This document shows, one piece after another, positions 1-18,783 of a DNA stretch of 18,783 nt (positions are counted from its first letter, which is position 1; every line of letters starts with the position of its first letter). A model generated the notes under the pieces. The model did no database searches. It was given only the letters and a program-made list of their open reading frames with translations, and was not told where the DNA came from. Origin of the DNA: Comamonadaceae bacterium (GTDB lineage Bacteria; Pseudomonadota; Gammaproteobacteria; Burkholderiales; Burkholderiaceae_C); NCBI GenBank assembly GCA_947374485.1, contig CANCCF010000067.1, positions 1 through 18,783 of the forward strand, read 5' to 3'. A program made the translations under genes and the position numbers.

Positions 1-60
1 GGCCAGACGCCGTTAGCCGTTACCATCTGCGCTCCCTTCGTTCTGGAATGATTCCTCTGC

Positions 61-2193
61 ATGTCTGCTCCCTCCGGTATGAACCTGGCCCAGCAAGAGG
101 CCGTCAACTATTTGCACGGCCCCTGCCTGGTGCTGGCCGGTGCCGGCTCGGGCAAGACGCGCGTCATCACGCACAAGATTGCGCGCCTGATCCAGACCGG
201 CATGCCAGCCAGGCGCATTGCCGCCATCACGTTTACCAACAAGGCCGCGGCCGAGATGCGCGAGCGCGCCAAGAGCCTGATTGGCAAACCCGCCAAGGAC
301 GTGGTGGTCTGCACTTTTCATTCGCTGGGCGTGCGCATGCTGCGCCAGGACGGCGCGGCGCTCGGCCTCAAGCCCGCCTTTTCCATCCTCGACACCGACG
401 ACGTCACCAGCATCCTGAAGGACGCGGGTGGCACGGTGGATGCAGCCACCGCGCGCCAATGGCAGTGGACCATCAGCGGCTGGAAGAGCGCCGGGCTGAA
501 TGCCGAGCAGGCCCTGGCCGTGGCTGCCAATGACAGCGAACGCCAGGTGGCCGTGGTCATGGCACGCTATGAGGAGCGCCTGAGCGCCTACCAGAGCGTG
601 GACTTTGACGACCTGATCAGCCTGCCTTTGAAGCTGCTGCAAAACCACCCCGAGGTGCGCATGAAATGGCAGGAGCAGATGGGCCATGTGCTGGTGGACG
701 AGTACCAGGACACCAACGCCACACAGTACGAGATGCTCAAAATGCTGGTGGGCGAGACGGCCGACCTTGCCCGCTTCACGGCCGTGGGCGATGACGACCA
801 ATCCATCTACGGCTGGCGCGGCGCCACGCTGGACAACCTGCGCCGCCTGCCGGTGGATTTTCCGGCCCTGAAAGTCATCAAGCTGGAGCAGAACTACCGC
901 TCCACCTCGGCGATCCTGCGCGCCGCCAACAACGTGATTGGCCCCAACCCCAAGCTGTACCCGAAGAACCTGTGGAGCGATCTGGGCGAAGGTGAGCCGG
1001 TGCGTGTGGTGGACGCCGACAGTGAGGAACACGAGGCCGAGCGGGCGGTAGCGCGCATCCAGAGCCTGCGCGCCGAGGGCAGCCTGGCGCAGGACGGCAA
1101 GCAGTACCGCGAGTTCAAGGATTTCGCCGTGCTGTACCGCGCCAACCACCAGGCCAAGCCGTTCGAGAAAGCCTTGCGCCGCGCCAACATCCCCTACAAG
1201 GTCTCGGGCGGTCAGAGCTTTTTTGACCGCGCCGAGATCCGCGACCTGTGCGCCTGGTTTCGCCTGTGGGCCAACAACGATGACGACCCGGCCTTTGTGC
1301 GCGCTGTGACCACACCCAAGCGCGGCATTGGCCACCAGACCCTGGGCACGCTGGGCGTATATGCCAGCCAGTACAAGCTCAGCCTGTTCGAGGCCCTGTT
1401 TTCGTCGTCACTTGGGGCGACGCTCAGCGGCAAAGCGCTGGGCAGCCTGCACGAGTTCGGCCGCTATGTGAACGACCTGCAGTTCCGCGCCCGCCACACC
1501 GAAGGCGCGGAAAACGCTATTTCATTCTTGACCGAGTGGCTGAAGGAAATCGGCTACGAAAGGCACCTCTACGACGGCGAAGAAAGCGAGAAATTGGCAG
1601 CAGCCAAATGGGCCAATGTGATCGAGTTTTGCGAGTGGATGGCGCAGCGCTGTGGCGGCCAGGTGGAAGGTGTGGCCGGAGTGGACGAGCGCGAGGTGAA
1701 GAACCTGCTGGAGGTCTCGCAAACCATCGCCCTGCTCTCCACCCTGACCGAGCGCGAAAAGGACCAGAACGTGGTGACGCTCTCCACCCTGCACGCCTCC
1801 AAGGGCCTGGAATGGCCGCATGTGCTGCTGGTGGGCGTGAACGAAGGTGTGCTGCCCTTCAAGCTCAAGGAGTCCACCGGTGCCGATGGCAGTGTGGTGC
1901 GCGATGAAGAGGCCGTGGCCGAGGACCTGGCCACGCGCTTGCAGGAAGAGCGGCGCCTGATGTACGTGGGCATTACCCGCGCACAGCGCAGCCTGGCCGT
2001 GAGCTGGGCCAAGCGGCGAAAGAAGGGGCGGGAACTGGTGGCGGCCTCGCCCAGCCGCTTTATTGCCGAGATGGCACTCAACCAGGCCACCACCAAAGAA
2101 GACCCGCGGGAAAGACTGCGTGCGCTGCGGGCCGAATTTGCCCTGAAGGCGCAGTTGTCAGCAGCGGCCAGCGCAGCACACAAACTGCGTTGA
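61..2193 (+). CDS. rep: ATP-dependent DNA helicase Rep (UvrD/Rep superfamily 1)
   Basis: 710-aa ORF. The N-terminus [34 protein letters not shown] closely matches E. coli Rep ([25 protein letters not shown], Walker A). It also has DEYQDT (motif II), LEQNYRST, and [17 protein letters not shown] plus [11 protein letters not shown] (motifs V/VI). Confidence 0.92.
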   Translation: [710 protein letters not shown]

Positions 2194-2201
2194 CACAGCC
2201 G

Positions 2202-2852
2202 CTAAATGGATAGCCCCAGTGCGCCGCTCAAGGTGGACGGCGGGCCAAACTCGGCATCGTGAATATCTGAAAGCGCCAGCATGGCGGCCACCGCATCCTG
2301 GTTGAAGCCGACGCGGGCATGGCCCATGCCGTCACCACCCGCCATGATCAGCCGGTTGATGTAGGTGCTGCATTCCCTGTAACCCCACAGCGTGCGTATC
2401 GTGTTGGCAATGCGCTGGTGGTGCGCCTCTACCGCCTCCAACGCCATGTTTTTACGCTGCTCCAGCGTCAGCTCGGGCTCCAGCGGCATGGGCGCGGTGG
2501 GCAAAACGAAATCAATCTGGTGGTCATCCATGACCGGCGTGGCCGAGGACGGTACAGCCACGGGCGTCATCACCGGCTTTGGCAGGGGTGCGGCCGCCAT
2601 GTGGGCGGCAACGCGTACAAGGGGTTGCACGGGCTTGGACGGCCCAGTGGACGTAGCAGTCGGTGCGGCACGTGCTAGAGAGGGTTCGGCTTGGGGCATG
2701 CGGGCATTTTCCGAAGCCAGCGTGCGCTCCAGTTCAGCCAGCGACGACGGCCGGGCCGGCAGTCGGCTGTCCGACGGCAAGCGCGAGCTTTGCGCCTCTT
2801 TGGTAGGCGAGTCAGTTGCTTTGTCGCTCTTGCCAAAAAACCTGCTGAACAT
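2202..2852 (-). CDS. hypothetical protein (Pro/Ala/Ser-rich N-terminal half, conserved-looking C-terminal ~80 aa)
   Basis: 216-aa ORF with host-like GC, convergent with rep (8-bp gap). It has an ATG start and a low-complexity linker followed by a structured C-terminus (RTLWGYRECSTYINRLIMAGGDGMGHARVGF). I do not recognise the family. Confidence 0.55.
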   Translation of the reverse strand: MFSRFFGKSDKATDSPTKEAQSSRLPSDSRLPARPSSLAELERTLASENARMPQAEPSLARAAPTATSTGPSKPVQPLVRVAAHMAAAPLPKPVMTPVAVPSSATPVMDDHQIDFVLPTAPMPLEPELTLEQRKNMALEAVEAHHQRIANTIRTLWGYRECSTYINRLIMAGGDGMGHARVGFNQDAVAAMLALSDIHDAEFGPPSTLSGALGLSI

Positions 2853-2953
2853 GGATCACTTTCGTCGGATTTTTGCCATGGTAACGCAGACCCCAGTCGT
2901 TTTACAGCCATTGGCGTAAAAAGCCAAGCGCCCTTTGCTGTGGATGGCCTCTG

Positions 2954-3038
2954 CTTCGAAAGCCATGGAGCGGCGAAGGAGGGGCGAAGGAGCGGCGAAC
3001 CCTAGGCCGCTACCCCGGCAAGGGCTCGCCAATCAACC
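2954..3038 (-). pseudogene. degenerate tRNA-Gly(GCC)-like remnant (possible relic att site or decayed duplicate)
   Basis: CTTCGAAAGCCATGGAGCGG (2954-2973) matches 19/20 the sequence spanning the 3' end and downstream flank of the intact tRNA-Gly (5146-5165, CTTCGAAAACCATGGAGCGG). Further in there is a CCTTGCC anticodon-loop-like string (GCC at 3017-3019), a GGTTCG T-loop-like string and a GTTGATTGG-GAGC D-arm-like string. No acceptor 5' strand and no canonical T-arm can be formed. An 11-bp-period GGCGAA(GGAG) triplication (2972, 2983, 2994) disrupts it. Confidence 0.4.
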
Positions 3039-3328
3039 CGTTTACAAGCCAAAACCACTTCGGACTTGGGCTTGATTTTTGTCTAGGGCACCAGGTGTTG
3101 CCCCCGCTTCAATACACCATTTATAGGCGGGATCCGGAGCAACTGGATGCCTGAAGCAGCGATCCTCACATCCGCAACTTGCAAAATGGAAACGGGTTTG
3201 TCAGATATGTACCAGGTTTGATACCAGCCATCACCATGTACCGACGTGACGCCTTCGCACGTGTTCGACAACTCGCTCTGCGGCTGCGGACGTGGGCCCG
3301 GATCAAACTGCGCCTCGGGTTGAAATCA

Positions 3329-5023
3329 ATGGATGACTCCGCTTACACGGAGTGGGTCAGACGGTATGACACACTGGATGGCAACAAAAGGGCCGCTTTA
3401 GCCGAATTGTGCAATGGATTTGCCCATCGGCCGAAAATATCCGTTCTGATGCCGATTTGCAGTCCAATTCACAATTGGCTTGTCGAAGCGATCGAGTCGG
3501 TCCGGAATCAGATATATCCAAATTGGGAACTGTGCATCACTGTGGCCACATCCATTGATCCATCCGTTCGGGCCAGTCTCGAAGACTTCTCCAGAAAAGA
3601 CAAACGCATCAAGCTGGCACTTGTTACAGCGCCCGGGCGATTTTCTATCGCTTCAAATAGTGCGCTTGAACTTGCGACAGGTGAATGGATTGCGTGGCTG
3701 GGTCACAACGATATATTGGCAGAAACGGCCTTGTGCCGGGTCATGGAAGCGTTCAACCTTGATTCAAATGCCGTATTTTTCTACTCTGATGAAGACAAAG
3801 TCAATTCCAAAGGGATTCGATGCGAACCCCTTTTCAAACCTGACTGGTCGCCACATTTGGCGTGTTCCCAGGCATATATTGGGCGCCTGTTCGTTTTCAA
3901 GGCAATACAGGCTAAACCCGAGCTTGAGGAAGATTCAGTTGGTTCACATGACTACGCGCTATGGCTCTCCATCACGAGCAAGCTGAAACGGAACCAGATT
4001 CATCATATAAGCTGCGTGCTCTATCACCGAAGGAAGGGCGCATACCCGACTGCAAGCATCACATCCAGTGAAAACAGGGCAAACCTGAAAGCCTTGAACA
4101 GGTTCATCTCCGACAGGTATTGCGATGAAACCTTGTATGCAAAAAATGGCAAGTCGAAGTTCACATATTCCCTGGAGCGCCGTCTTGGCGTGGAAATCCT
4201 CATCTCGATAATTATTCCAACAAAGGACAAAGTTGATCTTCTGTCAGATTGCATTCAAAGCATTCGCAAAAAGTCAACATGGCATAATTTTGAGATTATC
4301 ATTATCAACAACAATTCCATCGAAAAATCGACTTTTGAGTACCTTGACAAGATCAGGGCAATCGATGCGAGGATTACTGTTGTGGATGCACCGATTGAAT
4401 TTAATTGGTCACGAATCAACAATATAGGAATATCCAGGGCCCATGGGGACTTGTATGTATTTTTAAATAATGACACCCTCATTGTTGAGGGGACCTGGCT
4501 TGAAGCACTGTCAACTTATGCATTGCTCCCGGATGTAGGGGTTGTTGGGGGACTTTTGACGTATGAGGATGGAAGCATTCAGCACTCAGGTGTGGTAGTG
4601 GGCATGGGAGGCTGGGCGGATCATATTTTCTGCACCCAAGCTGCCACGCACGCCTCGGGTACAGGTTTTGTATCTCCGGTATTGACTCGCAATGTACTTG
4701 CCGTGACAGGTGCATGCATGGCAATTTCAAGAAGAACAATCAGGTCAATTGGCCTGTTTGATGAGAACTTTGTTATCTGCGGAAGCGACGTGGAGATGTG
4801 CATACGTTCCCACAAATACGGCTACTTTAATGTAATGTGTGCAGAAGCCAGGTTATTTCACTTTGAATCGAAAACCCGATCATCTTTTGTCCCGGCAATT
4901 GATATTGAACAATCAAGGGAAAAGTATGCGCCCTATCGAAAGGAAAAGATCGACCCGTTCTTCAATGAGAATCTTTCACTGAATACAACATATATTCGTT
5001 TGAAGGATTCACCTGTTGCTTGA
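3329..5023 (+). CDS. two-domain family-2 glycosyltransferase (GT-A fold), orphan
   Basis: The ORF is open from 3179 (TTG). In-frame ATGs lie at 3236 and 3329. I prefer 3329 because the AT-rich composition of the gene starts about there. Domain 1: ISVLMPICSP...AIESVRNQIYPNWEL...YSDEDK (DxD). Domain 2: ISIIIPTKDKVDLL..CIQSIRKKS..FEIIIINNNS...VFLNNDT (DxD-like)...GACMAISR. The pre-domain YTEWVRRYDTLD string is typical of O-antigen/EPS-type GT2 enzymes. Confidence 0.85.
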   Translation: MDDSAYTEWVRRYDTLDGNKRAALAELCNGFAHRPKISVLMPICSPIHNWLVEAIESVRNQIYPNWELCITVATSIDPSVRASLEDFSRKDKRIKLALVTAPGRFSIASNSALELATGEWIAWLGHNDILAETALCRVMEAFNLDSNAVFFYSDEDKVNSKGIRCEPLFKPDWSPHLACSQAYIGRLFVFKAIQAKPELEEDSVGSHDYALWLSITSKLKRNQIHHISCVLYHRRKGAYPTASITSSENRANLKALNRFISDRYCDETLYAKNGKSKFTYSLERRLGVEILISIIIPTKDKVDLLSDCIQSIRKKSTWHNFEIIIINNNSIEKSTFEYLDKIRAIDARITVVDAPIEFNWSRINNIGISRAHGDLYVFLNNDTLIVEGTWLEALSTYALLPDVGVVGGLLTYEDGSIQHSGVVVGMGGWADHIFCTQAATHASGTGFVSPVLTRNVLAVTGACMAISRRTIRSIGLFDENFVICGSDVEMCIRSHKYGYFNVMCAEARLFHFESKTRSSFVPAIDIEQSREKYAPYRKEKIDPFFNENLSLNTTYIRLKDSPVA

Positions 5024-5113
5024 AAAGATGATGCTACTGCCTAGATTGCGCCAGATCGAAGAAGCATAGCCAAGGCGGAAAAAGAGTAAGGCCTGAAAAA
5101 AGTCGCCGGAAAG

Positions 5114-5140
5114 CAAAAAGCCCATCCTTTCGGACGGGCT
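5114..5140 (-). terminator. rho-independent terminator downstream of tRNA-Gly
   Basis: The minus strand reads AGCCCGTCC-GAAA-GGATGGGCT followed by TTTTTGC. This is a 9-bp stem (one G.U) with a T-run, 18 nt after the tRNA 3' end. Confidence 0.7.
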
Positions 5141-5157
5141 CTTCACTTCGAAAACCA

Positions 5158-5233
5158 TGGAGCGGGAAAAGAGGCTCGAACTCTCGACCTATACCTTGGC
5201 AAGGTATCGCTCTACCAACTGAGCTATTCCCGC
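5158..5233 (-). tRNA. tRNA-Gly (anticodon GCC), CCA encoded
   Basis: The reverse complement is GCGGGAATAGCTCAGTTGGTAGAGCGATACCTTGCCAAGGTATAGGTCGAGAGTTCGAGCCTCTTTTCCCGCTCCA. It folds as a perfect 7-bp acceptor (GCGGGAA/TTCCCGC), D-arm GCTC/GAGC, anticodon stem ATACC/GGTAT with loop TTGCCAA, and T-loop TTCGAGC. It is near-identical in layout to E. coli tRNA-Gly(GCC). Confidence 0.93.
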
Positions 5234-5257
5234 ATGGTGGCTACTTGCGTAACCGTT

Positions 5258-5302
5258 TGGTGGCCTGGGGCGGAATCGAACCACCGACACAAGGATTTTC
5301 AA
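5258..5302 (-). repeat. distal att repeat: exact 45-bp copy of the tRNA-Phe 3' portion (anticodon loop to CCA)
   Basis: TGGTGGCCTGGGGCGGAATCGAACCACCGACACAAGGATTTTCAA is identical 45/45 to 11307-11351. Identity stops abruptly on both sides. No 5' half of a tRNA follows. Confidence 0.95.
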
Positions 5303-5465
5303 CACATTTAGCAGCGGCAAACCCAGCATTGACGCGGGTTGCAGCCCAAAAGTGTGTTCCGTGTGACGGACTGTGCTACAGAACCTAAAAGGTGCTTTTT
5401 GCTCCGTTCCACCCAACAGCATTGCTGTTTTTAGCATGACCGTATTGTAGCGCATAAACGAGCCG

Positions 5466-5912
5466 CTACTTGCCAAAGCCCTTACGCAGTGCACCGCTTG
5501 CAGCGTCCATCGCTGCATCCAGTTCACCGCCCTCAACTGCCTCGCGCACCACTGCCAGCACACTTGCCAACTCGCTTGCGCTGGCAACCTCAATTGCCGT
5601 CAGCCCCTTGCTGTTAAGTGCAAGGCACTTGCTGCCGTATTTCACCTGCAGCGCCAGCTTGCCGCCTTCCGTCTTAAACCACCATTGCCGCGCCTTGCGT
5701 GTCTTTTGCTCTGTGCTTTGCACGCCAGTTTCCGCGTCAACTACCGTAACTGTCTTGCTTGCCGTATAGGTAGTGCCAGCCGCAAACGCGGTAGCCATTG
5801 CTATTTGCTGATCAATCTTTACGCACAGTTTGGAGCGGCGCAATTGCACGGGTGCAACCTGCGTAACCTTCTTTGCGGCTGTGAACTTGAGTGAGGCGAG
5901 ACCTGTTGCCAT
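5466..5912 (-). CDS. hypothetical protein (148 aa), island-encoded
   Basis: An ATG at 5912 is preceded by GGAAGGAAAG (RBS) 4 nt upstream; the track's longer version starts at TTG 5927. The protein is MATGLASLKFTAAKK...RQWWFKTEGGKLALQVKYGSK...GGELDAAMDAASGALRKGFGK. It resembles a recurrent ~150-aa island-associated protein type I recall seeing, but I cannot name the family with confidence. Confidence 0.6.
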   Translation of the reverse strand: MATGLASLKFTAAKKVTQVAPVQLRRSKLCVKIDQQIAMATAFAAGTTYTASKTVTVVDAETGVQSTEQKTRKARQWWFKTEGGKLALQVKYGSKCLALNSKGLTAIEVASASELASVLAVVREAVEGGELDAAMDAASGALRKGFGK

Positions 5913-5999
5913 GTGCTTTCCTTCCAATATTTGTTAAAGCACAGTCAAGTCTGGCATCGCCGTTCAAATAGTCGATCAATACACACACGAAAAGGTCTG

Positions 6000-6284
6000 C
6001 TATTTGCGTATTGGTTTTCGCCCAGTCAATTTCGCTTGCTCTTTATTTGCAGCGCTTTGCATCTGTCCGTATTTCATAAACGCCATCTCCTTATCAAAAT
6101 TTGTTACCTGCACCTGGTTATCAGCCGTTTGTGCGATTTCCGCTGCCAATGCACCCTGCAGCTTTTGCTGGCGCTGTTGATCGCTTTGAACGGGGTAAGT
6201 TTGTGCCACTTGCGCTGCCAATTGCCGTTGCTTCATATTGGCAGCAGCCACTGCATTTTGTGGGGCGATTTCACTGTATTTCAT
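6000..6284 (-). CDS. hypothetical small Gln/Ala-rich protein (94 aa)
   Basis: An ATG at 6284 has AGGA 7-8 nt upstream. The gene is co-oriented with, and 87 bp upstream of, the 148-aa gene. The sequence is Q/A-rich and probably helical, with no recognisable domain. Confidence 0.5.
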   Translation of the reverse strand: MKYSEIAPQNAVAAANMKQRQLAAQVAQTYPVQSDQQRQQKLQGALAAEIAQTADNQVQVTNFDKEMAFMKYGQMQSAANKEQAKLTGRKPIRK

Positions 6285-6435
6285 ACTAAATCCTATCTTC
6301 TTCCATATTTATTCATAAGATTTGGCACGAAATATTATGGTTTTATTTGGTGCACATAAATACTGTATGAATATATACACCATACGACAAAAAACAGCAT
6401 ACAACCCAAACACCAGAACTACGGAGAAGCAAGCG

Positions 6436-6888
6436 ATGCGAAACTGGCTTATTGGCAAAAAGCAGGAGTTTCAGTTTGCTGTAACTCTTACTATCAAACA
6501 GACTATTACTGTGAAGAATGACAAAGGAACATACAAGCACAGGCTAAAGCGCAATGACGTAGATGGGATTGCAGAGAGGTTTACGCAAAAACTGAATGAG
6601 CAAGTGTTTGGGCATAGTGCAAAGCGTCACAAGCGCAAGCTGCTCTACATACCCATAGTTGAGGGCGTACACAATGGCAAAAACTTACACCTTCACTTTG
6701 CTATAGGGCACTACCCTAAAGATCGTCTGCCAAATCATTTTCCTCAATTAGTGCAAAACGCCATCACGCTGGTTACTGAACTGGATGAACAGCATAAGGT
6801 TGATGTGATGGACAGTGGTTGGTTTGAATACATAACGAAAGAGCTAAGCGCCAGAAACACGGACAACGTGTTATGGCATTTGGCTTAA
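6436..6888 (+). CDS. small HUH-motif protein, rolling-circle Rep/relaxase-like (150 aa from the preferred start)
   Basis: Three motifs appear in canonical HUH-endonuclease order: FAVTLT (motif I-like, 6475-6492), NLHLHFAIG (His-hydrophobic-His, 6688-6696), and WFEYITKE (YxxK-type catalytic Tyr candidate, Tyr codon 6829-6831). ATG 6436 has GGAG 9 nt upstream. Alternative in-frame starts are 6322 (TTG), 6337 and 6367. The layout resembles the Inovirus Gp2 / YfjJ-YagK type of island protein, but that assignment is from memory of motif architecture only. Confidence 0.55.
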   Translation: MRNWLIGKKQEFQFAVTLTIKQTITVKNDKGTYKHRLKRNDVDGIAERFTQKLNEQVFGHSAKRHKRKLLYIPIVEGVHNGKNLHLHFAIGHYPKDRLPNHFPQLVQNAITLVTELDEQHKVDVMDSGWFEYITKELSARNTDNVLWHLA

Positions 6889-6924
6889 CAGCATTACTGG
6901 CTTAGTGCCTCTTGCTGTCGTTGC

Positions 6925-6948
6925 ATTAAAGCTGAGTGAAGCTTTAAT
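6925..6948 (+). other. perfect 9-bp stem / 6-nt loop hairpin 37 bp downstream of the HUH-protein gene
   Basis: ATTAAAGCT-GAGTGA-AGCTTTAAT. No T-run follows, so it is not a typical intrinsic terminator. It is a candidate nick/ori-type hairpin or simply an RNA stability element. Confidence 0.4.
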
Positions 6949-7264
6949 TGGCTGCGCTTTCTTAAAAATTCGCTACTTCATCAACATAAAAGTCGTCAGC
7001 TACAAAGCAACACGAACACAGCGAGAACGCACGATAGCAAGCGTAGACAGCGTAAGGCATAGCAGAGTAGCTGACTGCTGTAGACGCTGCTGCAACGCTG
7101 GCAGGACATGCAGGAGCAGCGCATAAGAAAATAACAATATTCTTAAGTGGCTTGATTTTATTGGCTATTTTCAGCGCACCAAATAATTTGCCTATTGATC
7201 GACTTCCTGCACTAAATAAAGCAGACTAATGCGTATTAAAAAATTTGGTGAACTGGAGAAATTT

Positions 7265-7831
7265 ATGGCACAAGCAAAATCACTGACGGACGCAGAACTG
7301 CAACAGGTTTTGAATTACATAACAGAGCACACATTTGCGCAGCGCAATCGTGCAATGCTCCTTGTCAGCTTTTATGCTGGCATGCGAGTTGGCGAGATTG
7401 CCAGCTTAAAGCTTGGCGACGTGGTGAACGCAGACGGCAAAGTAAACGCAGAAGTGCGATTGGCGGCAGAGCAAACAAAGGGGCGGCATGCGCGAACCGT
7501 GTTCTTGCCTAAAAAGCTGCGCGATGAACTGCAGAGCTATGTGGACATGCGCTCAGTTAAAAACCCAGCACACCCCCTGTTCATAACGGCGGGGCGCAGG
7601 GCGTTTACGGCGAACGTGATGACGCAGCACTTCTTTTGGCTGTATCGCAGTGCGGGCGTGTCTGGCGCAAGCTCACACAGCGGCAGGCGCACATTCATTA
7701 CGAACTTGGCAGCGAAGGGGATTGGAGTGCGTGTGCTGGCTGGACTGGCAGGGCATCGCAGCATTGCAGTGACACAGCGATACATTGATGTGAACGACGA
7801 TATGAAGCGCAACGCTGTGGAGATGATTTGA
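7265..7831 (+). CDS. minimal tyrosine recombinase (catalytic domain only, 188 aa; FimB/FimE-like architecture)
   Basis: The full catalytic set is present: R in FYAGMRVGEIASL, K in EQTKGRHARTVFL, H-x-x-R in SHSGRRTF, and H and Y in AGHRSIAVTQRYI. Only about 30 residues precede box I, so there is no separate SAM-like core-binding domain. ATG 7265 is preferred; the upstream in-frame ATG 7229 would give 200 aa. Confidence 0.85.
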   Translation: MAQAKSLTDAELQQVLNYITEHTFAQRNRAMLLVSFYAGMRVGEIASLKLGDVVNADGKVNAEVRLAAEQTKGRHARTVFLPKKLRDELQSYVDMRSVKNPAHPLFITAGRRAFTANVMTQHFFWLYRSAGVSGASSHSGRRTFITNLAAKGIGVRVLAGLAGHRSIAVTQRYIDVNDDMKRNAVEMI

Positions 7832-7850
7832 GCGTTACTTAAAGTAACAC
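7832..7850. repeat. 19-bp palindromic site A (GCGTTACTTAAAGTAACAC)
   Basis: It begins 1 nt after the recombinase stop codon. The 7-1-7 core GTTACTT-A-AAGTAAC is a perfect palindrome. It matches the reverse complement of site B (9122-9140) at 18/19 positions. Confidence 0.8.
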
Positions 7851-7867
7851 TTCGCTCTCCCCAATCA

Positions 7868-7901
7868 CCCCCATTGCTTTGCCGCATGGGGGTTTTCTTT
7901 T
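7868..7901 (+). terminator. rho-independent terminator of the small recombinase gene
   Basis: CCCCCAT-(11-nt loop)-ATGGGGG followed by TTTTCTTTT. Confidence 0.65.
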
Positions 7902-7912
7902 CCTACGACGAT

Positions 7913-8103
7913 TAAAGTGATTTTCTTGTCAAGCGATTTTCGTCAATTTATTTTTTATTTTTACAGTCAAAAATGATAGCAATAAAGTCAATGTCTATGC
8001 GCTTTTCGCAATTTTTCAAAATCACATGTTCACCCATCAACGCCTCGCAAATTGGTCAAATAAATCACTTTATTTTAAACTACTTACATATTCACAAATC
8101 ACT
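7913..8103. promoter_or_regulatory. AT-rich control region with repeated GTGATTT motif upstream of the 327-aa gene
   Basis: GTGATTT occurs on the + strand at 7917-7923 and on the - strand at 8019-8025, 8062-8068 and 8096-8102. An 11-mer TAAAGTGATTT (7913-7923) is inverted at 8062-8072. A related GCGATTTTC lies at 7933-7941. A strong RBS, AAGGAG (8109-8114), lies 15 nt before ATG 8130. Confidence 0.45.
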
Positions 8104-8129
8104 GTGGATACTAAATAAAGGAGTTAGTT

Positions 8130-9113
8130 ATGGCTAAGGCAGCAGTTAACAGCGAAATCGCAACTAAGGTAATAGGTTATATTGACAGGCTTGCAGAGCA
8201 ACAAGCAGAGGTCACTGAGTACAATGAACGTAGCAATGAAGCGTTGTACAAAATGCTTGGAAAGGTTAAACAAGTTTGTGAGTATGTAAATGCCTGCGAA
8301 GATCCCGCAGATATTGTAAAGAAGATGCGCAAGATGCTGAAAGCTGATCGCAGCATTAAGACGCAAGCCAACAGTAGTATCGCGTCTATTATTATCAAGT
8401 GTCTTGTTCCCACAAGCCGCAAGACTCAGTGCGTATATGCCAGCGTTATTAAAGCCGCAGAGGCTAATGGCATTACAGGGGAAGGGCTTGCAGAGTACAT
8501 TCGCGCAAATAAAGGGATTGAAAATTTGCGAAAGATTCATGCAGGCGTAACGACGAAAGCTGCGAAAAGCTTGGACGCTGAAATCGCAAATGCTTCACAA
8601 AGGCTGCTGCGTATGCTGTGCGATACAAGCTCCAAACAGCGGCTTGGCGTAGTTAAGCTTGAGGGTGTTAAAAGCGTTAGCATGTTGCACGACAGGTGCG
8701 AGCTTACGCACTTGATGTGCAAGGAGAATAAGGTGACTGGTGAGCTTGAAATCGTCGCAGTCGCCTACCCCACGCTCCAACTGCAAAAGCTCGTACTGGA
8801 CAACTATGTTGCAGCCATGCAAGTTGCAGCCGTGCAGAAGACGAACGAGTTTTACGCAGAATGCAAGCGTATTGGTGCGGACATGGACACTGTGAATACT
8901 TGGCGCGAAGCCAACGGCATACAGTCTGGTAGCCAGGCGATTGCGTTGCTCGCAAGCATTGGCGAGATGCTTGACGCTGACATGGTGCGGCGTGTGAATG
9001 AAGCAGAGGCTGCTGCCAGCAAACGCCTTGCCATTGCGTATTCATCGCAAGTTGTGGGCGTTGACTGCAGCAAGCAGTCCGCGTCCCAGTCAAACTTCGT
9101 TATCGCCGCTTAG
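8130..9113 (+). CDS. hypothetical protein (327 aa), no recognisable domain
   Basis: The ORF is long and clean, with an ATG plus AAGGAG RBS, island-like composition, and a terminator downstream. It looks predominantly helical and soluble. No motif I can assign. Confidence 0.7.
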   Translation: MAKAAVNSEIATKVIGYIDRLAEQQAEVTEYNERSNEALYKMLGKVKQVCEYVNACEDPADIVKKMRKMLKADRSIKTQANSSIASIIIKCLVPTSRKTQCVYASVIKAAEANGITGEGLAEYIRANKGIENLRKIHAGVTTKAAKSLDAEIANASQRLLRMLCDTSSKQRLGVVKLEGVKSVSMLHDRCELTHLMCKENKVTGELEIVAVAYPTLQLQKLVLDNYVAAMQVAAVQKTNEFYAECKRIGADMDTVNTWREANGIQSGSQAIALLASIGEMLDADMVRRVNEAEAAASKRLAIAYSSQVVGVDCSKQSASQSNFVIAA

Positions 9114-9121
9114 CCGCCACA

Positions 9122-9140
9122 GTGTTACTTTAAGTAACAC
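9122..9140. repeat. 19-bp perfect palindromic site B (GTGTTACTTTAAGTAACAC)
   Basis: A perfect 9-1-9 palindrome 8 nt after the stop codon of the 327-aa gene. Its central TTTAA is the reverse complement of the TTAAA in site A. Confidence 0.8.
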
Positions 9141-9144
9141 CACA

Positions 9145-9177
9145 AAAAAGCCCACTCGTTAAAACAGTGGGCTTTTT
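9145..9177. terminator. bidirectional rho-independent terminator between the convergent 327-aa and lipoprotein genes
   Basis: AAAAA-AGCCCACT-(9-nt loop)-AGTGGGCT-TTTT. The 8-bp stem is flanked by an A-run and a T-run. Confidence 0.75.
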
Positions 9178-9209
9178 AGCATTGACGGAATTATATTTTT
9201 TAAATAAGC

Positions 9210-9818
9210 CTATATTTTTTGCTTAACCTCTTTGCAATTTAAAGAAGTTCTGTAAATTATTACATAATTATTTGGCGTTACAACCATTTTGCCATTGGAT
9301 TTGGAGAAATTGGGATGCACATTTAAATTGTAAGTTTCATCCAATATCGTCAAATTGGTCCTATCCAACACTACAATTTTTGCGCCCAATATTGAGTCTT
9401 TATTTGGTAGCCATTTTTTAAAGAATGGACTTGTTTTAGTATCATTATCTTTACTATCTATCCAGTCCCCAGTAAATTCCCTCACATCCTTCACAGCGCA
9501 ATCCCACGCATATTTGTAACTACTGGACGTTACTTCACACAATGGTAGCCTGTCATCTTTTATAACATTATCACCTTTAACTATAATATATTGCTTACCA
9601 ACAATATATTTTTGAGTAACAGCATCTGCGGGACTATGAAGACTTTTAACATCACTTGGCTCAGCTATCCCCTGCTCACTCCAAGTCCCATCGCAATCCA
9701 AAAACTTTTCCGCATCTGCATTTGAGGAGGACTTATTAAATAGCTCAACGACTCTTTCACAGCCAGTTATACAAAGCGCCAATAATAATATTGTACATAT
9801 TTTAGTAAAATTTTGCAT
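9210..9818 (-). CDS. putative lipoprotein (202 aa), very AT-rich gene
   Basis: The N-terminus MQNFTKICTILLLALCITGCERV is a signal peptide with lipobox I-T-G-C. There are four further Cys in the mature part. The gene is markedly more AT-rich than even the rest of the island. Confidence 0.75.
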   Translation of the reverse strand: MQNFTKICTILLLALCITGCERVVELFNKSSSNADAEKFLDCDGTWSEQGIAEPSDVKSLHSPADAVTQKYIVGKQYIIVKGDNVIKDDRLPLCEVTSSSYKYAWDCAVKDVREFTGDWIDSKDNDTKTSPFFKKWLPNKDSILGAKIVVLDRTNLTILDETYNLNVHPNFSKSNGKMVVTPNNYVIIYRTSLNCKEVKQKI

Positions 9819-9899
9819 ATTATTTGAATATCTTCATTTTGCATTAAAATACATTTATTTCCAAATTAGCGCTTTAAAGTGCATGAGCATGTGCGGCAT

Positions 9900-11195
9900 T
9901 TAAATTGCCGCACTACCGCTTTGCTTGTCGTCAGTTGCCTTCGTTTTGGTTGCTTCCACCTTCTTCACCCCCATCCGCTTGCCTGCAATAACATCTGCTT
10001 TTAGCGCGGGCGTTAAATGTCCATAGTACCGCTCAATCATCCCTATGCTCGTGCCCATCTGCTTTGCCAGTGTCGCAATTGGCATGCTGTCCTGCAGTAG
10101 CGCGAAGTGAGCATAGGTGTGGCGAAGGCTGTACAGCGTACGTTTTTCCTTCACATCCTTGTTCTTATCCAAGCCGCTGTCACGCATTAGGTGACGGAAT
10201 GTGCCGTTCAGCGCATTCGTTGCTTCACCAGTCCGCAACCTGAACACCAGCACATCCAGCTTCTTTTTCAGCAGTGCATCAAACTCCAGCTTCTTCAAAT
10301 CGTCAAAGCGCTCCTGTATGCGCTTCAAGTAATCCTCCGCTGCATGCCGTGCAATCAGTGTCCGTTTGCCTGTCTTGCCATTGACGGTGAACTGCAAGTA
10401 GCGCTGCCCGTCTTTCGCAATCCATTCAACATCACGCCATTTCAAATTCAACGCTTCCGTGCCATGCCGCATCCCTGTGTTCGCCAGCACCAGCACATAG
10501 TCCCGCAGCAGTTCACGCATGTGCTGCGTCTTCGCCATGTGCCCTATCGTGCTCCACTTCACCATGTAGCTTGTAAGGGACTTGTATTCTGCAAAGCTAA
10601 ACGCCTCGCGCGGCGTAGCCTTCGCGCCCTTATTCTTCATTTTGGGCACTTGCGATTGCGACATCCACCCGCGCTGCACAGCCGCATCAAACACACGATT
10701 GAGGGCAGACGTGTGCGTTGTGACGGTGCTGGCAACTGGCACCTTCTTCATTTCTTTTGTGCGCCAGTCGTCAAATGCCTTCAAGTGCTCATAGCCAATC
10801 GTGCCAATGTTGAGCTTGCCAAAAAACGGGATGAGATAACGGTTGGTGGCTGCGATGTAGCTGTTGTAAACGCTTTTGCCCACGCCGCCATCAAGCTGAT
10901 CCTGCATTTCCTTCACTGCAATCTTTGCGATTGAGTCAAAGCGCTTGGTAACGATTGGCAGATTTTCTGCCTTTAAAAATCGTGCCCTGTCATATGCCTC
11001 GCAAGCTGCCTGCGTTGCGTATTCCAAGTTGCGCTGTTTGGTGCTGATACGTTGCCACTTGCTGTCCCGCAACTTAAAGCGAGCCTGCCAAATTTTGCTG
11101 TCCAGCCGCTTGTAAAGCACCACTTCACCATCGCGTGCATACACGATGTGCATAGGTGCTTTGCTGGACTTGGGGGCTGCAGATGAGTTCGCCAT
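9900..11195 (-). CDS. int: tyrosine-type site-specific integrase (island integrase, about 431 aa)
   Basis: The C-terminal catalytic domain has LANTGMRHGTEALNLKWRDV (Arg), LYSLRHTYAHFAL (H-x-x-R region) and MIERYYGH (Tyr). An N-terminal arm/core-binding region is present (KIWQARFKL...). The gene lies directly next to tRNA-Phe. The ORF is open to 11288; I prefer ATG 11195 (MANSSAAPK...). Confidence 0.9.
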   Translation of the reverse strand: MANSSAAPKSSKAPMHIVYARDGEVVLYKRLDSKIWQARFKLRDSKWQRISTKQRNLEYATQAACEAYDRARFLKAENLPIVTKRFDSIAKIAVKEMQDQLDGGVGKSVYNSYIAATNRYLIPFFGKLNIGTIGYEHLKAFDDWRTKEMKKVPVASTVTTHTSALNRVFDAAVQRGWMSQSQVPKMKNKGAKATPREAFSFAEYKSLTSYMVKWSTIGHMAKTQHMRELLRDYVLVLANTGMRHGTEALNLKWRDVEWIAKDGQRYLQFTVNGKTGKRTLIARHAAEDYLKRIQERFDDLKKLEFDALLKKKLDVLVFRLRTGEATNALNGTFRHLMRDSGLDKNKDVKEKRTLYSLRHTYAHFALLQDSMPIATLAKQMGTSIGMIERYYGHLTPALKADVIAGKRMGVKKVEATKTKATDDKQSGSAAI

Positions 11196-11271
11196 GTTGT
11201 GCGTTACAAATGAACTGCTGTTCAGTGTATACGCATAAGCAGGAACTGTGCTAAGACCGTGTAATGGAAAA

Positions 11272-11297
11272 GCGTAGCACACTTTCATGTGCTACGC
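11272..11297. promoter_or_regulatory. 10-bp perfect inverted repeat (6-bp spacer) at the island edge, candidate integrase/regulator binding site
   Basis: GCGTAGCACA-CTTTCA-TGTGCTACGC lies 10 bp from the tRNA-Phe 3' end and upstream of the int start. Each arm contains the TGTGCTAC motif also found at 5372-5379; the shorter TGTGCTA core recurs at 11247-11253. Confidence 0.5.
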
Positions 11298-11306
11298 CTT
11301 ATGGGA

Positions 11307-11382
11307 TGGTGGCCTGGGGCGGAATCGAACCACCGACACAAGGATTTTCAATCCTCTGCTCTACCGACTGAGCTACCGGGCC
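11307..11382 (-). tRNA. tRNA-Phe (anticodon GAA), CCA encoded; integration target
   Basis: The reverse complement is GGCCCGGTAGCTCAGTCGGTAGAGCAGAGGATTGAAAATCCTTGTGTCGGTGGTTCGATTCCGCCCCAGGCCACCA. It has a canonical D-arm, anticodon loop TTGAAAA and T-loop TTCGATT, and is close to E. coli tRNA-Phe. The acceptor stem carries one C5.A68 mismatch (GGCCCGG versus CCAGGCC). Confidence 0.92.
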
Positions 11383-11391
11383 AAGCCTCAA

Positions 11392-11397
11392 ATTATA
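11392..11397 (-). promoter_or_regulatory. candidate -10 box (TATAAT) for tRNA-Phe
   Basis: The minus strand reads CTGCTATAATTTGAGGCTT followed directly by the tRNA 5' end. A perfect TATAAT sits 9 nt upstream of mature position 1. I found no convincing -35 at 17-bp spacing. Confidence 0.4.
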
Positions 11398-11418
11398 GCA
11401 GGAAGAATGGCGCCTCCT

Positions 11419-11441
11419 GGCAAAAACTGCTGATCAGTTTG
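11419..11441 (-). terminator. weak terminator-like hairpin after ntrX
   Basis: The minus strand reads AAACTG-ATCAG-CAGTTT followed by TTG. The stem is short (6 bp) and overlaps its own T-run. Confidence 0.3.
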
Positions 11442-11446
11442 GCAAA

Positions 11447-12124
11447 TTACAAACCGCTGCGTTTGCCGCGGCTCAGGTCCACGCCGAGCTGCTTGAGTTT
11501 GCGGTAGAGGTGGGTACGCTCCAGACCGGTCTTTTCGGCCACGCGGGTCATGGAGCCGTTCTCGCGCGCCAAGTGGTACTCGAAGTAGGCCTTTTCGAAT
11601 TCGTCACGCGATTCGCGCAGGGGCTTGTCGAGCATGAAGCTCTGGTTGGGTTGGGGGCCGCTTTCCTGCACGGCATGGGCTACGGCCAAAACCGTGTCCA
11701 CGGTGTCGTGCACCACGGCTTCGCGCGGCACGAGTTCAATGGCGGCGGGCTTGCGCAGGATGCTGCGGGCCAGCCCCTGCTCGACTGCCTTGAGCAGTTT
11801 TTGCATGGTGATGGGCTTTTCCAGAAAGGCCAGGGCGCCGATCTTGGTGGCCTCCACTGCGGTGTCGATGGTGGCGTGGCCGCTCATCATGATGACGGGC
11901 ATGTTCAGAAGGCCGGTGGAGGACCATTCCTTGAGCAGGGTGACGCCGTCGGTGTCGGGCATCCAGATGTCGAGCAGGACCAGGTCGGGCCGCTCGCGCA
12001 GGCGGGCCGAACGCGCCTGCGCGGCGTTTTCCGCCAGCTCGACCTGGTGGCCGCCGTCGTTCAGAATTTCCCACAGCAGGTCGCGTATGCCGTGCTCATC
12101 ATCCACCACCAAAATATTTGCCAT
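11447..12124 (-). CDS. ntrX: NtrX-like response regulator: receiver domain + C-terminal Fis-type HTH, no AAA+ sigma-54 module
   Basis: REC: ILVVDDEHGIRDLL...DLVLLDIWMPDTDG...MSGHATIDTAVEATKIGALAFLEKP. C-terminus: FEKAYFEYHLARENGSMTRVAEKTGLERTHLYRKLKQLG (Fis-type HTH). Only about 225 aa, so there is no room for a central ATPase domain. ATG 12124 (MANILVVDD) is preferred over TTG 12160. It lies immediately downstream of ntrY. Confidence 0.8.
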   Translation of the reverse strand: MANILVVDDEHGIRDLLWEILNDGGHQVELAENAAQARSARLRERPDLVLLDIWMPDTDGVTLLKEWSSTGLLNMPVIMMSGHATIDTAVEATKIGALAFLEKPITMQKLLKAVEQGLARSILRKPAAIELVPREAVVHDTVDTVLAVAHAVQESGPQPNQSFMLDKPLRESRDEFEKAYFEYHLARENGSMTRVAEKTGLERTHLYRKLKQLGVDLSRGKRSGL

Positions 12125-12156
12125 CGTGTCCGCGTTCCCTTGGGTTGTCGTGCCAC

Positions 12157-14439
12157 TCAACTCTGTGAGCTATTTACAACAGGCAATGATAACGACACTT
12201 GTGCGCCCACTATCTTTCCTTCGACCACGCGGTTGCTGATGTCCACGCGCGAGCCGTGTTCATCGGCAATTTTCTTCACCACCGCCAAACCGAGGCCCGT
12301 GCCCTTGGGCTTGGTGGTGACATAGGGTTCGAAGGCGCGTTTGAGGATCGCGTCTTCAAAGCCGGGGCCCTGGTCCAGCACGCTCAGGCGCACCCGGCCC
12401 TTGGCCTGCAGCCAGTTGGTGCGCAGCACCACCGGCCCGGCCACGCTGCCATCGGCATGCGGCAGGTCGCTGGCATCCTGGGCGTTTTGCAGCAGGTTGT
12501 GGATGACCTGGCGCAGCTGCTGGGCGTCGCCGCGCACAGGCGGGCAGTTGGCGTCGAGTTCGAGCCGCACCGGCACATGGGTGGCATCGGCCTCGTAGAG
12601 TTGCTGCACGTCCTGCACCAGGGCGTTGAGGTTGACGGGCTTGAGTTCGGCCGCGGGCAGGCGGGCGTAGTCGCGGAACTCGTTGACCAGGCGCTTCATG
12701 GCGTCGACCTGGTCGACGATGGTTTTGACCGATTTGTTGAGCACCTGTTGCTCGGGCGGCAACAGCTTGCCGCTGAGCTTGATCTCCAGACGCTCGGCCG
12801 ACAGCTGAATGGGAGTGAGCGGGTTCTTAATTTCATGGGCCAGGCGCCGCGCCACCTCGCCCCAGGCCTGGGCCCGCTGGGCCGAGACGATTTCGGAGAT
12901 GTCGTCAAACACCAGCAAGCGGGCGTCCCCAGGCAGTGTCGCGCCCCGGGCAACGATGGTCAGTGCCCGGTCAAACGGTGAGTGCATGGGGGCATTGCTG
13001 CCGCCGAGCTCGAAGGTCTGCTGCCAGTGGTCGGGCTCGTGCTCCAGCTTGGCCAACATGAAGTCGGCAAACTGGGCCTGCACGGCTTGGCCAAAGTCCT
13101 GCAGGCCTGCAACACCGGCCAGCGGCTGGCCGATGTGCGCGGCCAGTGGGGCCTGCAATATGCGTGTGGCGCCGGGGTTGGCCGACAGCAACTCGCCTTG
13201 GGGGCCCAGCACAATCACCCCGGCCGTCAGGTTGTCCAGAATGGTTTGCAGATTGGCGCGTGCCGCGTCCACCTGCGCCATGCTGTGCTCTACCGCCTGC
13301 CGCGCATCGGAGAGCTGCGCGGTCATGGTGGCAAAGGCGCGGGTCAGGCCGCCGAGTTCGTCTTTGCCTTGCATGGCCAGTTTGGGTGTCAGGTCACCCG
13401 CTGCGACCTGGCTCACACCTTCTGCCAGCAACAACAAGGGGCGGGCGAGCTGGTTGCCCAGCACCACGGCCATCAGTATGGCGGCAAACACCGCCAAAAA
13501 CAGACTCAGCGTGAGGGTGCCGATGTACATGCGCTTGAGGCCCTCGCGCGCCAGCGCCCGCTCCTGGTACTCGCGGTTGGCGGTATCCACGGCCAGGGCG
13601 TTGGCCACCAGATTGCGCGGCAAGGCCTTGGAGGCCAGCAGGAAGCGCGGCTCCGGGTTCAGACCCAGGCCCGAGGCTGCCAGCGGCACCAACACGCGGA
13701 TGCGTGCGCTCGCCTGCGCATCGGAGCCTGCATCTTCCAGACCCTCAATCCAGGCGCTGGCGCGCTCAGAGCGCGCGGTGCGGAACTGGGCGCTGGTGGG
13801 CTTGTCCGGGCTGAGCTGGATGCGCGACTGCCCGCCGCTGGCCACCAGGGTACCCGCGCTGGTCCAGATGGCGGTGTCCGTGGCGCCCAGTTGGTCCACC
13901 ATCTTTTCCAGTTGGGTGCTGGCGTTGTTGTCAGACACCTCATTGAGCTGGGGTGCAGCCGCGCGCACTTTGGCGGTGAACTCGCTGGAGAGGGTGTCCA
14001 GCGTCACCCGCCCCAGACTCAGGCCTGCTTCCAAGGCCCCTTCGACCTTGACATCGAACCAGGTTTCAATCGAACGCGAGACAAACTGGTACGACACCAC
14101 GTAAATCAGCAGGCCCGGGGCAAAACCCACCAAGGCAAAAATGGCCGCGAGCTTGACCAGCAAGCGGCTGCCAAAACGCCGCTGGCGCAAACGCAGGGTG
14201 AGGCGATAGCAGACCCAGGCAATGCCCGCCAACAGCACCGCCGCCACGGCCACATTGACATAGAACAGCAGCGCGTAGTTGCGTTCATACAGGTCGCGGT
14301 TGTTGGTGGCCTGCATCAGCATGTAGAGCAGCACCATGCCAATCAGCAGCATGCACAGCGAACCCACCGTCACGGCCCGTCGCACGAGGCGCGAGCTGTG
14401 GCGCACGCTGGGCAGGGCGGCAAGGCCCGGGTCGTTCAT
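12157..14439 (-). CDS. ntrY: NtrY-like sensor histidine kinase (TM-HAMP-PAS-HisKA-HATPase)
   Basis: 760 aa. It has N-terminal hydrophobic segments and a second TM before a HAMP-like region (LARPLLLLAEGVSQVAAGDL). The H-box AHEIKNPLTPIQLSAERL is characteristic of NtrY. N/G boxes: QVIHNLLQNA, DQGPGF, GTGLGLAVVKKI. Its start overlaps the stop of the upstream gene (ATGA). Confidence 0.88.
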   Translation of the reverse strand: MNDPGLAALPSVRHSSRLVRRAVTVGSLCMLLIGMVLLYMLMQATNNRDLYERNYALLFYVNVAVAAVLLAGIAWVCYRLTLRLRQRRFGSRLLVKLAAIFALVGFAPGLLIYVVSYQFVSRSIETWFDVKVEGALEAGLSLGRVTLDTLSSEFTAKVRAAAPQLNEVSDNNASTQLEKMVDQLGATDTAIWTSAGTLVASGGQSRIQLSPDKPTSAQFRTARSERASAWIEGLEDAGSDAQASARIRVLVPLAASGLGLNPEPRFLLASKALPRNLVANALAVDTANREYQERALAREGLKRMYIGTLTLSLFLAVFAAILMAVVLGNQLARPLLLLAEGVSQVAAGDLTPKLAMQGKDELGGLTRAFATMTAQLSDARQAVEHSMAQVDAARANLQTILDNLTAGVIVLGPQGELLSANPGATRILQAPLAAHIGQPLAGVAGLQDFGQAVQAQFADFMLAKLEHEPDHWQQTFELGGSNAPMHSPFDRALTIVARGATLPGDARLLVFDDISEIVSAQRAQAWGEVARRLAHEIKNPLTPIQLSAERLEIKLSGKLLPPEQQVLNKSVKTIVDQVDAMKRLVNEFRDYARLPAAELKPVNLNALVQDVQQLYEADATHVPVRLELDANCPPVRGDAQQLRQVIHNLLQNAQDASDLPHADGSVAGPVVLRTNWLQAKGRVRLSVLDQGPGFEDAILKRAFEPYVTTKPKGTGLGLAVVKKIADEHGSRVDISNRVVEGKIVGAQVSLSLPVVNSSQS

Positions 14440-16368: not shown

Positions 16369-16387
16369 TGTTCTTCTTGCTTGCGTT

Positions 16388-16915: not shown

Positions 16916-16954
16916 GCGGCCAGCATACTGGCTAAAGCCTGGGCCCCAATGCAA

Positions 16955-17019
16955 ACGCCCCAAGCCTGCGTCAAGCGGGCTTGGGGCGTTAACCCGGGGC
17001 TGGCGCGTGCCAGCCCCGG
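16955..17019 (-). terminator. tandem GC-rich hairpins downstream of rpoC
   Basis: In minus-strand order: CCGGGGCTGGC-ACGC-GCCAGCCCCGG (11-bp perfect stem, 16994-17019), then ACGCCCCAAGCC-(11-nt loop)-GGCTTGGGGCGT (12-bp stem, 16955-16989) followed by TTGCATT. Confidence 0.6.
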
Positions 17020-17034
17020 CAGGGTCACGGGCAA

Positions 17035-18783
<1,749 letters not shown>

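Follow-up and report, generated by a model that had tools for sequence, protein, structure and literature searches.

Lineage-specific palindromes bracket a backbone gene of a tRNA-Phe island in a Comamonadaceae bacterium and may serve as operator-like boundary sites

A stretch of 18,783 bp from a Comamonadaceae bacterium (GCA_947374485.1, CANCCF010000067.1, positions 1–18,783; hereafter the window) raises the question of what two near-identical 19-bp palindromes do at the borders of a 1.27-kb segment lying directly downstream of a tyrosine recombinase gene. The palindromes, PAL_A (GCGTTACTTAAAGTAACAC, 7832–7850) and PAL_B (GTGTTACTTTAAGTAACAC, 9122–9140), bracket a + strand gene with a good ribosome-binding site (8130–9113), whose product of 327 amino acids (aa) is called p327 here, while the 188-aa recombinase, referred to as the mini-recombinase, is encoded on the same strand at 7265–7831. 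An initial annotation made from the sequence alone saw in this arrangement a possible switch, in which a FimB/FimE-sized recombinase would invert or excise the 1.27-kb segment via both sites. The bracketing of the p327 gene and the match of PAL_B to the reverse complement of PAL_A at 18 of 19 positions were confirmed, but the comparison with related loci (designated by L numbers) spoke against the switch. Our tentative preference is that the PALs are operator-like boundary sites specific to the island lineage and read by a factor of the right-hand module of the island, for which p327 is the best candidate.

The two palindromes and the neighbouring recombinase

The two palindromes were the only matches to the 19-mer in the window at up to three mismatches, where none was expected from 200 shuffles. 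PAL_B is a perfect 9-1-9 palindrome, and the direct alignment of the two sites gave 17/19 identical positions, the differences between them being the central base and one outer position. As both sites are almost perfectly symmetric, their classification as "inverted" or "direct" hangs on one central base, which corresponds to about 1 bit. The 19-mer of PAL_A begins 0 nt after the TGA stop codon of the recombinase gene, not after 1 nt as first described, and its strict palindrome (7834–7848) begins 2 nt after the stop, while the distance of 8 nt between the TAG stop codon of the p327 gene and PAL_B proved to be correct. Folding also bore out the intrinsic terminator predicted behind each palindrome. 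Terminator A (7867–7901, + strand) is formed by ACCCCCAU...AUGGGGGU followed by a U-run, and its stem (7867–7893) has a folding energy of −24.3 kcal/mol (z = −4.5); terminator B (9145–9182) is bidirectional, with a stem (9145–9177) of −25.8 kcal/mol (z = −5.2). Both PALs are thereby placed between a stop codon and an intrinsic terminator. No target-site duplication was visible around the PAL-bounded segment in the window sequence, and an Rfam scan of the window and 14 loci gave no match at PAL.

The mini-recombinase gene has a GGAGA motif ahead of its ATG, and its product matched PF00589 over practically the entire protein (1.4e-25; 90.4 bits, the cut-off being 27.1; positions 2–170 of the 172 in the profile). 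Alignment to XerA (5hxy) and a XerC-like protein (4a8e) upheld the earlier description of a recombinase with all catalytic residues, that is, R (GMRVGE), K (TKGRHAR), H-S-G-R, GH, and RY, and without the N-terminal core-binding domain. This catalytic-domain-only architecture and the length of 188 aa agree with the approximately 190–200 aa of the FimB/FimE-type enzymes, and as in the fim switch, inverted sequences flank a short segment beside the recombinase gene. On the other hand, the FimB/FimE invertase models of NCBIfam (NF007370 and NF007371) gave only 37.2 and 32 bits, respectively, where their cut-offs demand 221 and 222, while the best Xer model, XerA, reached 75 bits against 220, with the match confined to the C-terminal half of the models, and the integron integrase model TIGR02249 reached 37.8 bits against 265, over residues 7–96 only. 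According to these hidden Markov models (HMMs), the mini-recombinase is nearer to the Xer type than to the FimB/FimE type, even though all scores are far under the family cut-offs. The fim switch differs also in being a promoter cassette, whereas the segment flanked here comprises a complete transcription unit including promoter and terminators, and its sites are self-palindromic and family-wide. In a word-indexed search with the mini-recombinase, 7,961 of 8,000 candidates were significant; the best 120 of these were 70–99% identical, nearly all 188 aa long, and came mostly from freshwater (lake) and groundwater metagenomes and from Burkholderiaceae. The enzyme thus belongs to a very large and tightly conserved family, with thousands of members and an almost uniform length of 188 aa. 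No relatives were found in viral contigs scanned with the mini-recombinase and with the PAL-linked integrase.

The initial annotation had listed co-occurrence of the 19-mer with recombinase homologues as a check of its proposal. The mini-recombinases of L161–165 and L169 are 92.6% identical to that of the window in protein (84–92% in DNA), yet no PAL could be detected at up to four mismatches within 5 kb on either side of the recombinase gene in L161–165, and L169 had no PAL even at four mismatches. The homology between L169 and the window, 92% DNA identity over 1.8 kb, extends to the recombinase stop codon and ends exactly there, where PAL_A marks the mosaic seam at which L161 homology ends as well. 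PAL was similarly absent from L001–L005, whose mini-recombinases are 73–79% identical. Conversely, the majority of PAL loci have no mini-recombinase, and in L125, L019, L099, and L167, which have both, the two do not adjoin. In L007, the recombinase gene is reduced to a 55-codon remnant, yet both PALs and the p327 gene are intact at the same places, while L006 retained the p327 gene and site B (with C in the centre) and lacks PAL_A. The segment has a single orientation in all three contexts resembling the window island, namely the window itself, L007, and the P0129 contig, and no inverted or deleted variant of it was seen among these few relatives. As far as sequence comparison goes, PAL does not belong exclusively to the neighbouring recombinase. 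The switch in its exact original form has become improbable, and whichever role the sites have, a fim-like claim should not be carried forward without read-level evidence. The 188-aa recombinase would rather be a conserved core gene of the island that acts on some other site.

An island-borne palindrome with two dialects

The bracketed segment lies within the right-hand half, next to the integrase, of an integrative island of 6 kb that is mosaic in structure and inserted in tRNA-Phe. The 3′ part of tRNA-Phe is repeated directly as 45 bp with 100% identity at 5258–5302, the left island boundary, and 11307–11351, the latter being the 3′ 45 nt of tRNA-Phe(GAA) (11307–11382, − strand) and the right boundary. 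The GC content is 38–54% across 5258–11351 compared with 64% in the flanking DNA, which ranges from 62 to 68%, and a P4-like 462-aa integrase with a SAM-like N-terminal domain (9900–11288, − strand) is encoded immediately downstream of the intact tRNA-Phe. Since a directly repeated tRNA 3′-end, a neighbouring integrase, and a deviating base composition characterize tRNA-inserted integrative genomic islands, the segment lies inside such an element, as had been supposed; L001–L004 share this design.

PAL is widespread beyond the window. Scanning of metagenomes for GTGTTACTTNAAGTAAC revealed at least 120 matching contigs, and relaxed matching gave 156 non-redundant sites, from lake metagenomes and Polynucleobacter genomes, with a consensus of about 25 bp (YRA-GYGTTACTT-W-AAGTAACRC-TYR), in which the flanking extension YRA...TYR is conserved; in some copies, the perfect palindrome extends to 29 bp. 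A scan of 185,579 species genomes found only 33 exact matches, 22 of them in Polynucleobacter or in lake betaproteobacterial/Burkholderiaceae metagenome-assembled genomes (MAGs). With only one or two exact copies per genome, PAL is not a high-copy repetitive extragenic palindromic (REP) sequence. In the literature, no paper was found with the 15-mer, and none tying Polynucleobacter islands to a palindrome.

The sites, mostly in Polynucleobacter islands, border the attachment (att) arms, flank integrase genes on either side, and enclose operons of cargo or backbone genes, and they may form clusters bracketing single genes or small blocks, such as four PALs in 9.4 kb of L018 and four in 11.4 kb of L117. 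Several contexts recur: the 3′ part of tRNA(CAU) from the anticodon loop is followed by a terminator and PAL; PAL is followed after 38 nt by a hairpin (X), an arm of about 190 nt, and the tRNA core; and PAL stands against the stop codon of the DUF6641 gene. In eight PAL-selected loci and in L166, which was retrieved via its integrase protein and not via PAL, a PAL lies 105–150 nt upstream of the start of an integrase belonging to a Polynucleobacter clade, and in L117, L077, and L166 a PAL directly follows the integrase stop codon. The sequences joined across PAL vary considerably, as 14 distinct partners were counted for the X arm (28 copies), and 16 and 13 for two modules consisting of a tRNA 3′ part and a terminator.

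In L166 (Polynucleobacter sp. MWH-HuK1, 1372–11375), a type I restriction-modification block of 8.4 kb is delimited exactly by a PAL at each end, and it likewise lies between the tRNA(CAU) 3′ repeat and the integrase. The tRNA(CAU) of Polynucleobacter contains a group I intron in the anticodon loop according to Rfam (L157 3407–3685, L146 20–241, and L138 3086–3307) and is a hot spot at which islands insert in tandem and repeated tRNA 3′ fragments are numerous. PAL was also observed 5–7 nt from fragments of other tRNAs extending from the T-loop to the 3′-end (L018 940–975, L035 approximately 9975–10020, and L013 1–60), thus the PAL-bearing islands appear to use several tRNA targets.

The variation among the copies is informative about what may recognize them. 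All four bases occur at the centre and the symmetry is odd-length, while the half-site variants GCG and GTG assort independently, and hairpin covariation at the sole variable pair is absent. A dimeric DNA binder fits the independent assortment better than a selected hairpin. The 19-mer occurs in a Planctomycetia MAG (four times) and in a Saprospiraceae MAG (three times) as well (L142 2290; L145 2429; L159 131 and 2794; L149 361, 598, and 730). The Planctomycetia genome is unrelated and has 70% GC, and in two of its four copies the AT-rich 19-mer lies about 23 nt upstream of an ATG; in the Saprospiraceae genome, the three copies are inside a longer repeat. These occurrences suggest a transcription-factor site that is re-used in unrelated lineages.

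The sister islands lacking PAL carry another palindrome, PAL2 (TGTCG-N5-7-CGACA, mostly TGTCGTNTAAAACGACA), at equivalent positions, which differs from PAL at 6 of 17 core positions. Each of L161–165 has four copies (5633, 6848, 8388, and 8968 in L161): one between the stop codons of the recombinase gene and the convergent gene c5, one at the 5′-end of the p327-family gene, one on the stop codon of an AAA gene, and one 16 nt past the last gene, directly ahead of a terminator that is homologous to terminator B of the window. L002 also has four copies (905, 9746, 11879, and 13271), including both sides of the integrase, L003/4 have two (4152 and 9737 in L003), and L169 has one (1814), 5 nt after the recombinase stop codon. 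The 5′-end of the p327-family gene is marked by PAL2 in L161, L003, and L002. The grammar, that is, palindromes at module edges and around the p327-family operon and the integrase, is therefore kept while the word changes. The dialect travels with the right-hand module and not with the mini-recombinases, which are 93% identical across the dialects. The integrase clade was considered as a determinant of the dialect and rejected, as the integrases of the window island and L099 grouped with those of the PAL2 islands in the alignment.

The p327 gene belongs to the same shared backbone. The initial annotation listed p327 as an ORF of unknown function, and no match was obtained in Pfam, PHROG, NCBIfam, or the PDB sequences; its AlphaFold model was confident (predicted local distance difference test score of 85), yet no solved PDB fold matched it. 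Close homologues were confined to L007 (73%) and L006 (75%). Nevertheless, exhaustive and HMM searches placed it in a family that numbers at least 177 representative clusters and takes in the positional counterparts in L002, L003/4, L161–165, L019, and L167, hence p327 is the product of a backbone gene rather than of exotic cargo. L001–L005 and L161–L165 share a design with the DUF6641 gene at one end, the mini-recombinase, convergent c5 (approximately 270–320 aa), the p327-family gene, often followed by an AAA ATPase gene, and the integrase, and such islands are often in tandem at tRNA-Phe. In the window, the DUF6641 gene, the conserved terminal gene of the family, was identified at 5466–5927 (− strand; PF20346, 8e-8; phrog_31551), and it has the equal position in L001–L005, L161, and L167. 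Island-type palindromes bracket p327-family operons in three diverged lineages, represented by the window island and L007, by L002, and by L161–165, a recurrence indicating that the bracketing of the 327-aa gene is not accidental. The control region of the p327 gene (7902–8129, + strand), which has promoter-like sites, is 90–95% conserved in L006 and L007 while the protein is 73–75% identical, and it contains inverted AAAGTGATTT/AAATCACTTT motifs at a distance of approximately 130 nt; the actual operator of the gene is probably formed by these motifs.

Operator-like sites and their alternatives

According to the reading that we tentatively prefer, the PALs would be double-stranded recognition sites for a sequence-specific protein that binds as a dimer and whose gene lies in the right-hand module or is inherited together with it, and the putative reader would be the p327-family protein, whose operon is palindrome-bracketed in the three lineages. 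The odd symmetry, the free centre, the independent half-sites without covariation, the palindromes 5′ of p327-family genes, the dialect switch at homologous positions, and the Planctomycetia copies upstream of start codons all favour this over a crossover site of recombination or a selected hairpin. The sites would then act as do the palindromic operators that global regulators of plasmids use in several copies, such as the KorB OB and KorA OA sites on the IncP plasmids. The resemblance lies in several identical or near-identical palindromes of 12–20 bp per mobile element, which sit at the borders of modules or promoters, with a variable spacing to the promoters, and are of a lineage-specific type. 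The differences are that the element is a 6-kb chromosomal island, that many sites abut stop codons and terminators, and that no KorA, KorB, or ParB homologue was detected. The sites would mark and insulate transcription units, in the window the p327 unit with a terminator behind each site, and they might also bring the int and att regions under this control. As the PALs are at module edges, they would coincide with the seams of module swapping between islands.

Several observations weigh against this interpretation. The initial annotation had mentioned operator-like or centromere-like sites as an alternative to its switch, and we favour the operator-like version, but p327 had no recognizable DNA-binding fold in PDB sequence and fold searches. 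Neither PAL of the window overlaps a promoter, a terminator separates PAL_A from the promoter of the p327 gene, and L006 has no PAL_A. Stop codons are abutted by 122 of 312 PAL half-flanks, and many PALs stand within arrays of cargo, remote from the core genes of the island; cassette recombination sites show such a pattern no less typically than operators do. The palindromes have an approximately 9-fold excess of homology breakpoints (29 of 239 against an expectation of 3.1); the enrichment is real but not decisive, because the palindromes sit at gene ends and the count is confounded by this position. The covariation between p327 family and dialect, finally, rests on few lineages. A recombination role, as a cassette site or as an att site jointly, is rather unlikely in our view, yet it stays alive due to the stop-abutting copies, the mosaic seams at the palindromes, and the PAL-bounded blocks beside integrases.

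The first form of such a role, which we judge unlikely, is an integron-like cassette platform. Here the mini-recombinase would act via the shared geometry or structure of the palindromes instead of their exact sequence (TGT-N3-(A/T-rich 5)-N3-ACA, that is, 5-bp arms and a 7-bp spacer), and the p327 segment would be excisable, invertible, or exchangeable. A palindrome does lie 0–5 nt past the recombinase stop codon in the window, L007, and L169, and between the recombinase and c5 stop codons in L161–165; everything downstream of the seam between the window and L169 differs; the downstream genes are separated by same-dialect palindromes abutting stop codons, as attC sites do; and the four PAL2 copies of L161 share one polarity. 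The order of a conserved tyrosine recombinase gene and variable genes ending in imperfect palindromes, which abut or overlap stop codons and are alike within an array, is also that of integrons. However, the mini-recombinase has no IntI-specific features and is co-directional with the genes, the sites are 19–25 bp in contrast to 57–141 bp, and the modules carry their own promoters and terminators, while recombinase and dialect do not covary. A 92.6% identical recombinase would need to use two dialects that differ at 6/17 core positions, L001 has neither PAL nor PAL2 after its recombinase gene, and the PAL2 copies of L003 and L005 are all at other places. In the Polynucleobacter-type islands L125, L019, L099, and L167, the recombinase gene has no PAL beside it, and L007 keeps both sites beside its truncated recombinase. 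The nearly symmetric spacer provides no directionality, the alternative arrangement was not observed among the contexts resembling the window island, and the seam with L169 was not made by a crossover inside the site, because the left halves of the palindromes differ. Slightly less probable still is the more specific proposal of an undescribed platform, on which 188-aa recombinases capture and shuffle promoter-bearing modules at anticodon-arm-like palindromes (PAL and PAL2) by geometry; if true, it would correspond in function to the integrons, but be carried by tRNA-targeting islands of freshwater Burkholderiales.

The second form, which seems to us of similarly low probability, supposes that the large P4-like integrases use PAL as an att-type or pseudo-att site, through which modules accrete, and relies on mimicry of the anticodon arm by a 5-bp stem (TGTTA/TAACA) and a 7-nt loop (CTTWAAG). 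The p327 segment would then be an integrase-less, cis-mobilizable remnant. In agreement with this, PAL takes places that are held by tRNA-Phe 3′ repeats in sister islands, it abuts the DUF6641 end in L028, L125, and L155 besides occurring shortly upstream of integrase starts as described above, it is found between tandem islands in L167, L168, and L019, and L166 shows the order tRNA 3′-end, terminator, PAL, restriction-modification block, PAL, integrase, PAL. The true crossover repeats of the Polynucleobacter arrays, however, are the tRNA(CAU) 3′ parts beginning in the anticodon loop (CTCATAA), and PAL is separate from them by 60–230 nt. Moreover, the integrases of the window island and L099, which have PAL, are closer to those of L001–L003, which have PAL2, than to the Polynucleobacter PAL-linked clade, and the cargo blocks of L041, L051, and L117 have PAL on one side only.

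A function at the RNA level, in which a transcribed hairpin stabilizes the mRNA 3′-end or aids the adjacent terminator, is very unlikely. PAL_A and PAL_B can fold into hairpins (−4.3 and −7.1 kcal/mol) between stop codon and terminator, and many other copies adjoin terminators, but these hairpins are weak and have no U-run, and the exact sequence is conserved beyond pairing in more than 150 contexts, the commonest class having a C-A or G-T mismatch at the sole variable pair. Moreover, PAL is found both ways round with respect to transcription, and it also lies upstream of genes and beside tRNA fragments. A selfish REP-like palindrome spread by a HUH nuclease related to the REP-associated tyrosine transposases (RAYT-like), such as the product of orf150 with its HLH and C-terminal EYI motifs, would suit a short, lineage-specific intergenic palindrome, but it is highly improbable given the low copy number (one or two exact copies per species genome), the absence of REPIN-type doublet spacing, the lack of a Y1_Tnp match for any island open reading frame (ORF) and of detectable Y1-transposase similarity in orf150, and the absence of orf150 homologues from almost all PAL loci, their cluster being limited to the window island and L001.

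Other features of the island and its significance

The gene order of the island is DUF6641 (−), orf94 (−), orf150 (+), mini-recombinase (+), PAL_A, terminator, control region, p327 (+), PAL_B, terminator, p202 (−), integrase (−), and tRNA-Phe, and the flanking genes are uvrD/rep, ntrX, ntrY, DUF4390, and rsmB. The p202 gene (9210–9818, − strand) is integrase-proximal. A DNA search of phage and plasmid collections with the whole island matched solely the tRNA-Phe repeat, for example, in attP of Burkholderia phages. The orf150 gene (6436–6888, + strand) gave no family or PDB match; its product has the motifs H-L-H-F and, at the C-terminus, EYITKE, which recall the HUH single-tyrosine nucleases, but this assignment was dropped, as family libraries and the PDB gave no support. 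An 11-bp inverted repeat around orf150 (TTATTTGGTGC, 6343/7176) was likewise rejected as an alternative switch, since it is conserved in none of the relatives. Outside the island, a 35-nt repeat of the tRNA-Gly(GCC) 3′-end with 83% identity (2954–2988 and 5146–5180) flanks a low-GC glycosyltransferase gene (3179–5023), and this segment is probably a second, decayed island at tRNA-Gly without an integrase.

With its 45-bp tRNA 3′ repeats, the integrase beside the tRNA, the low GC content, and the tandem accretion seen in relatives (L001–L004 and the Polynucleobacter tRNA(CAU) arrays), the island resembles the P4-like tRNA-targeting islands that form tandem arrays with cis-mobilizable remnants, from which it is set apart by the additional, conserved mini-recombinase and by a system of palindromes at internal boundaries, of which two or more dialects exist. 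We consider these palindromes an undescribed boundary system in an abundant and essentially uncharacterised island family. Short lineage-specific palindromes punctuate its modules, that is, the att arms, the integrase, the p327 operon, and the cargo, and so give a handle for delimiting the modules and finding the reader protein. If the palindromes are recombination sites, they would represent a new gene-cassette system shaping the islands of Polynucleobacter, a model freshwater bacterium; if they are operators, they would constitute a compact global control circuit on an island of only 6 kb.

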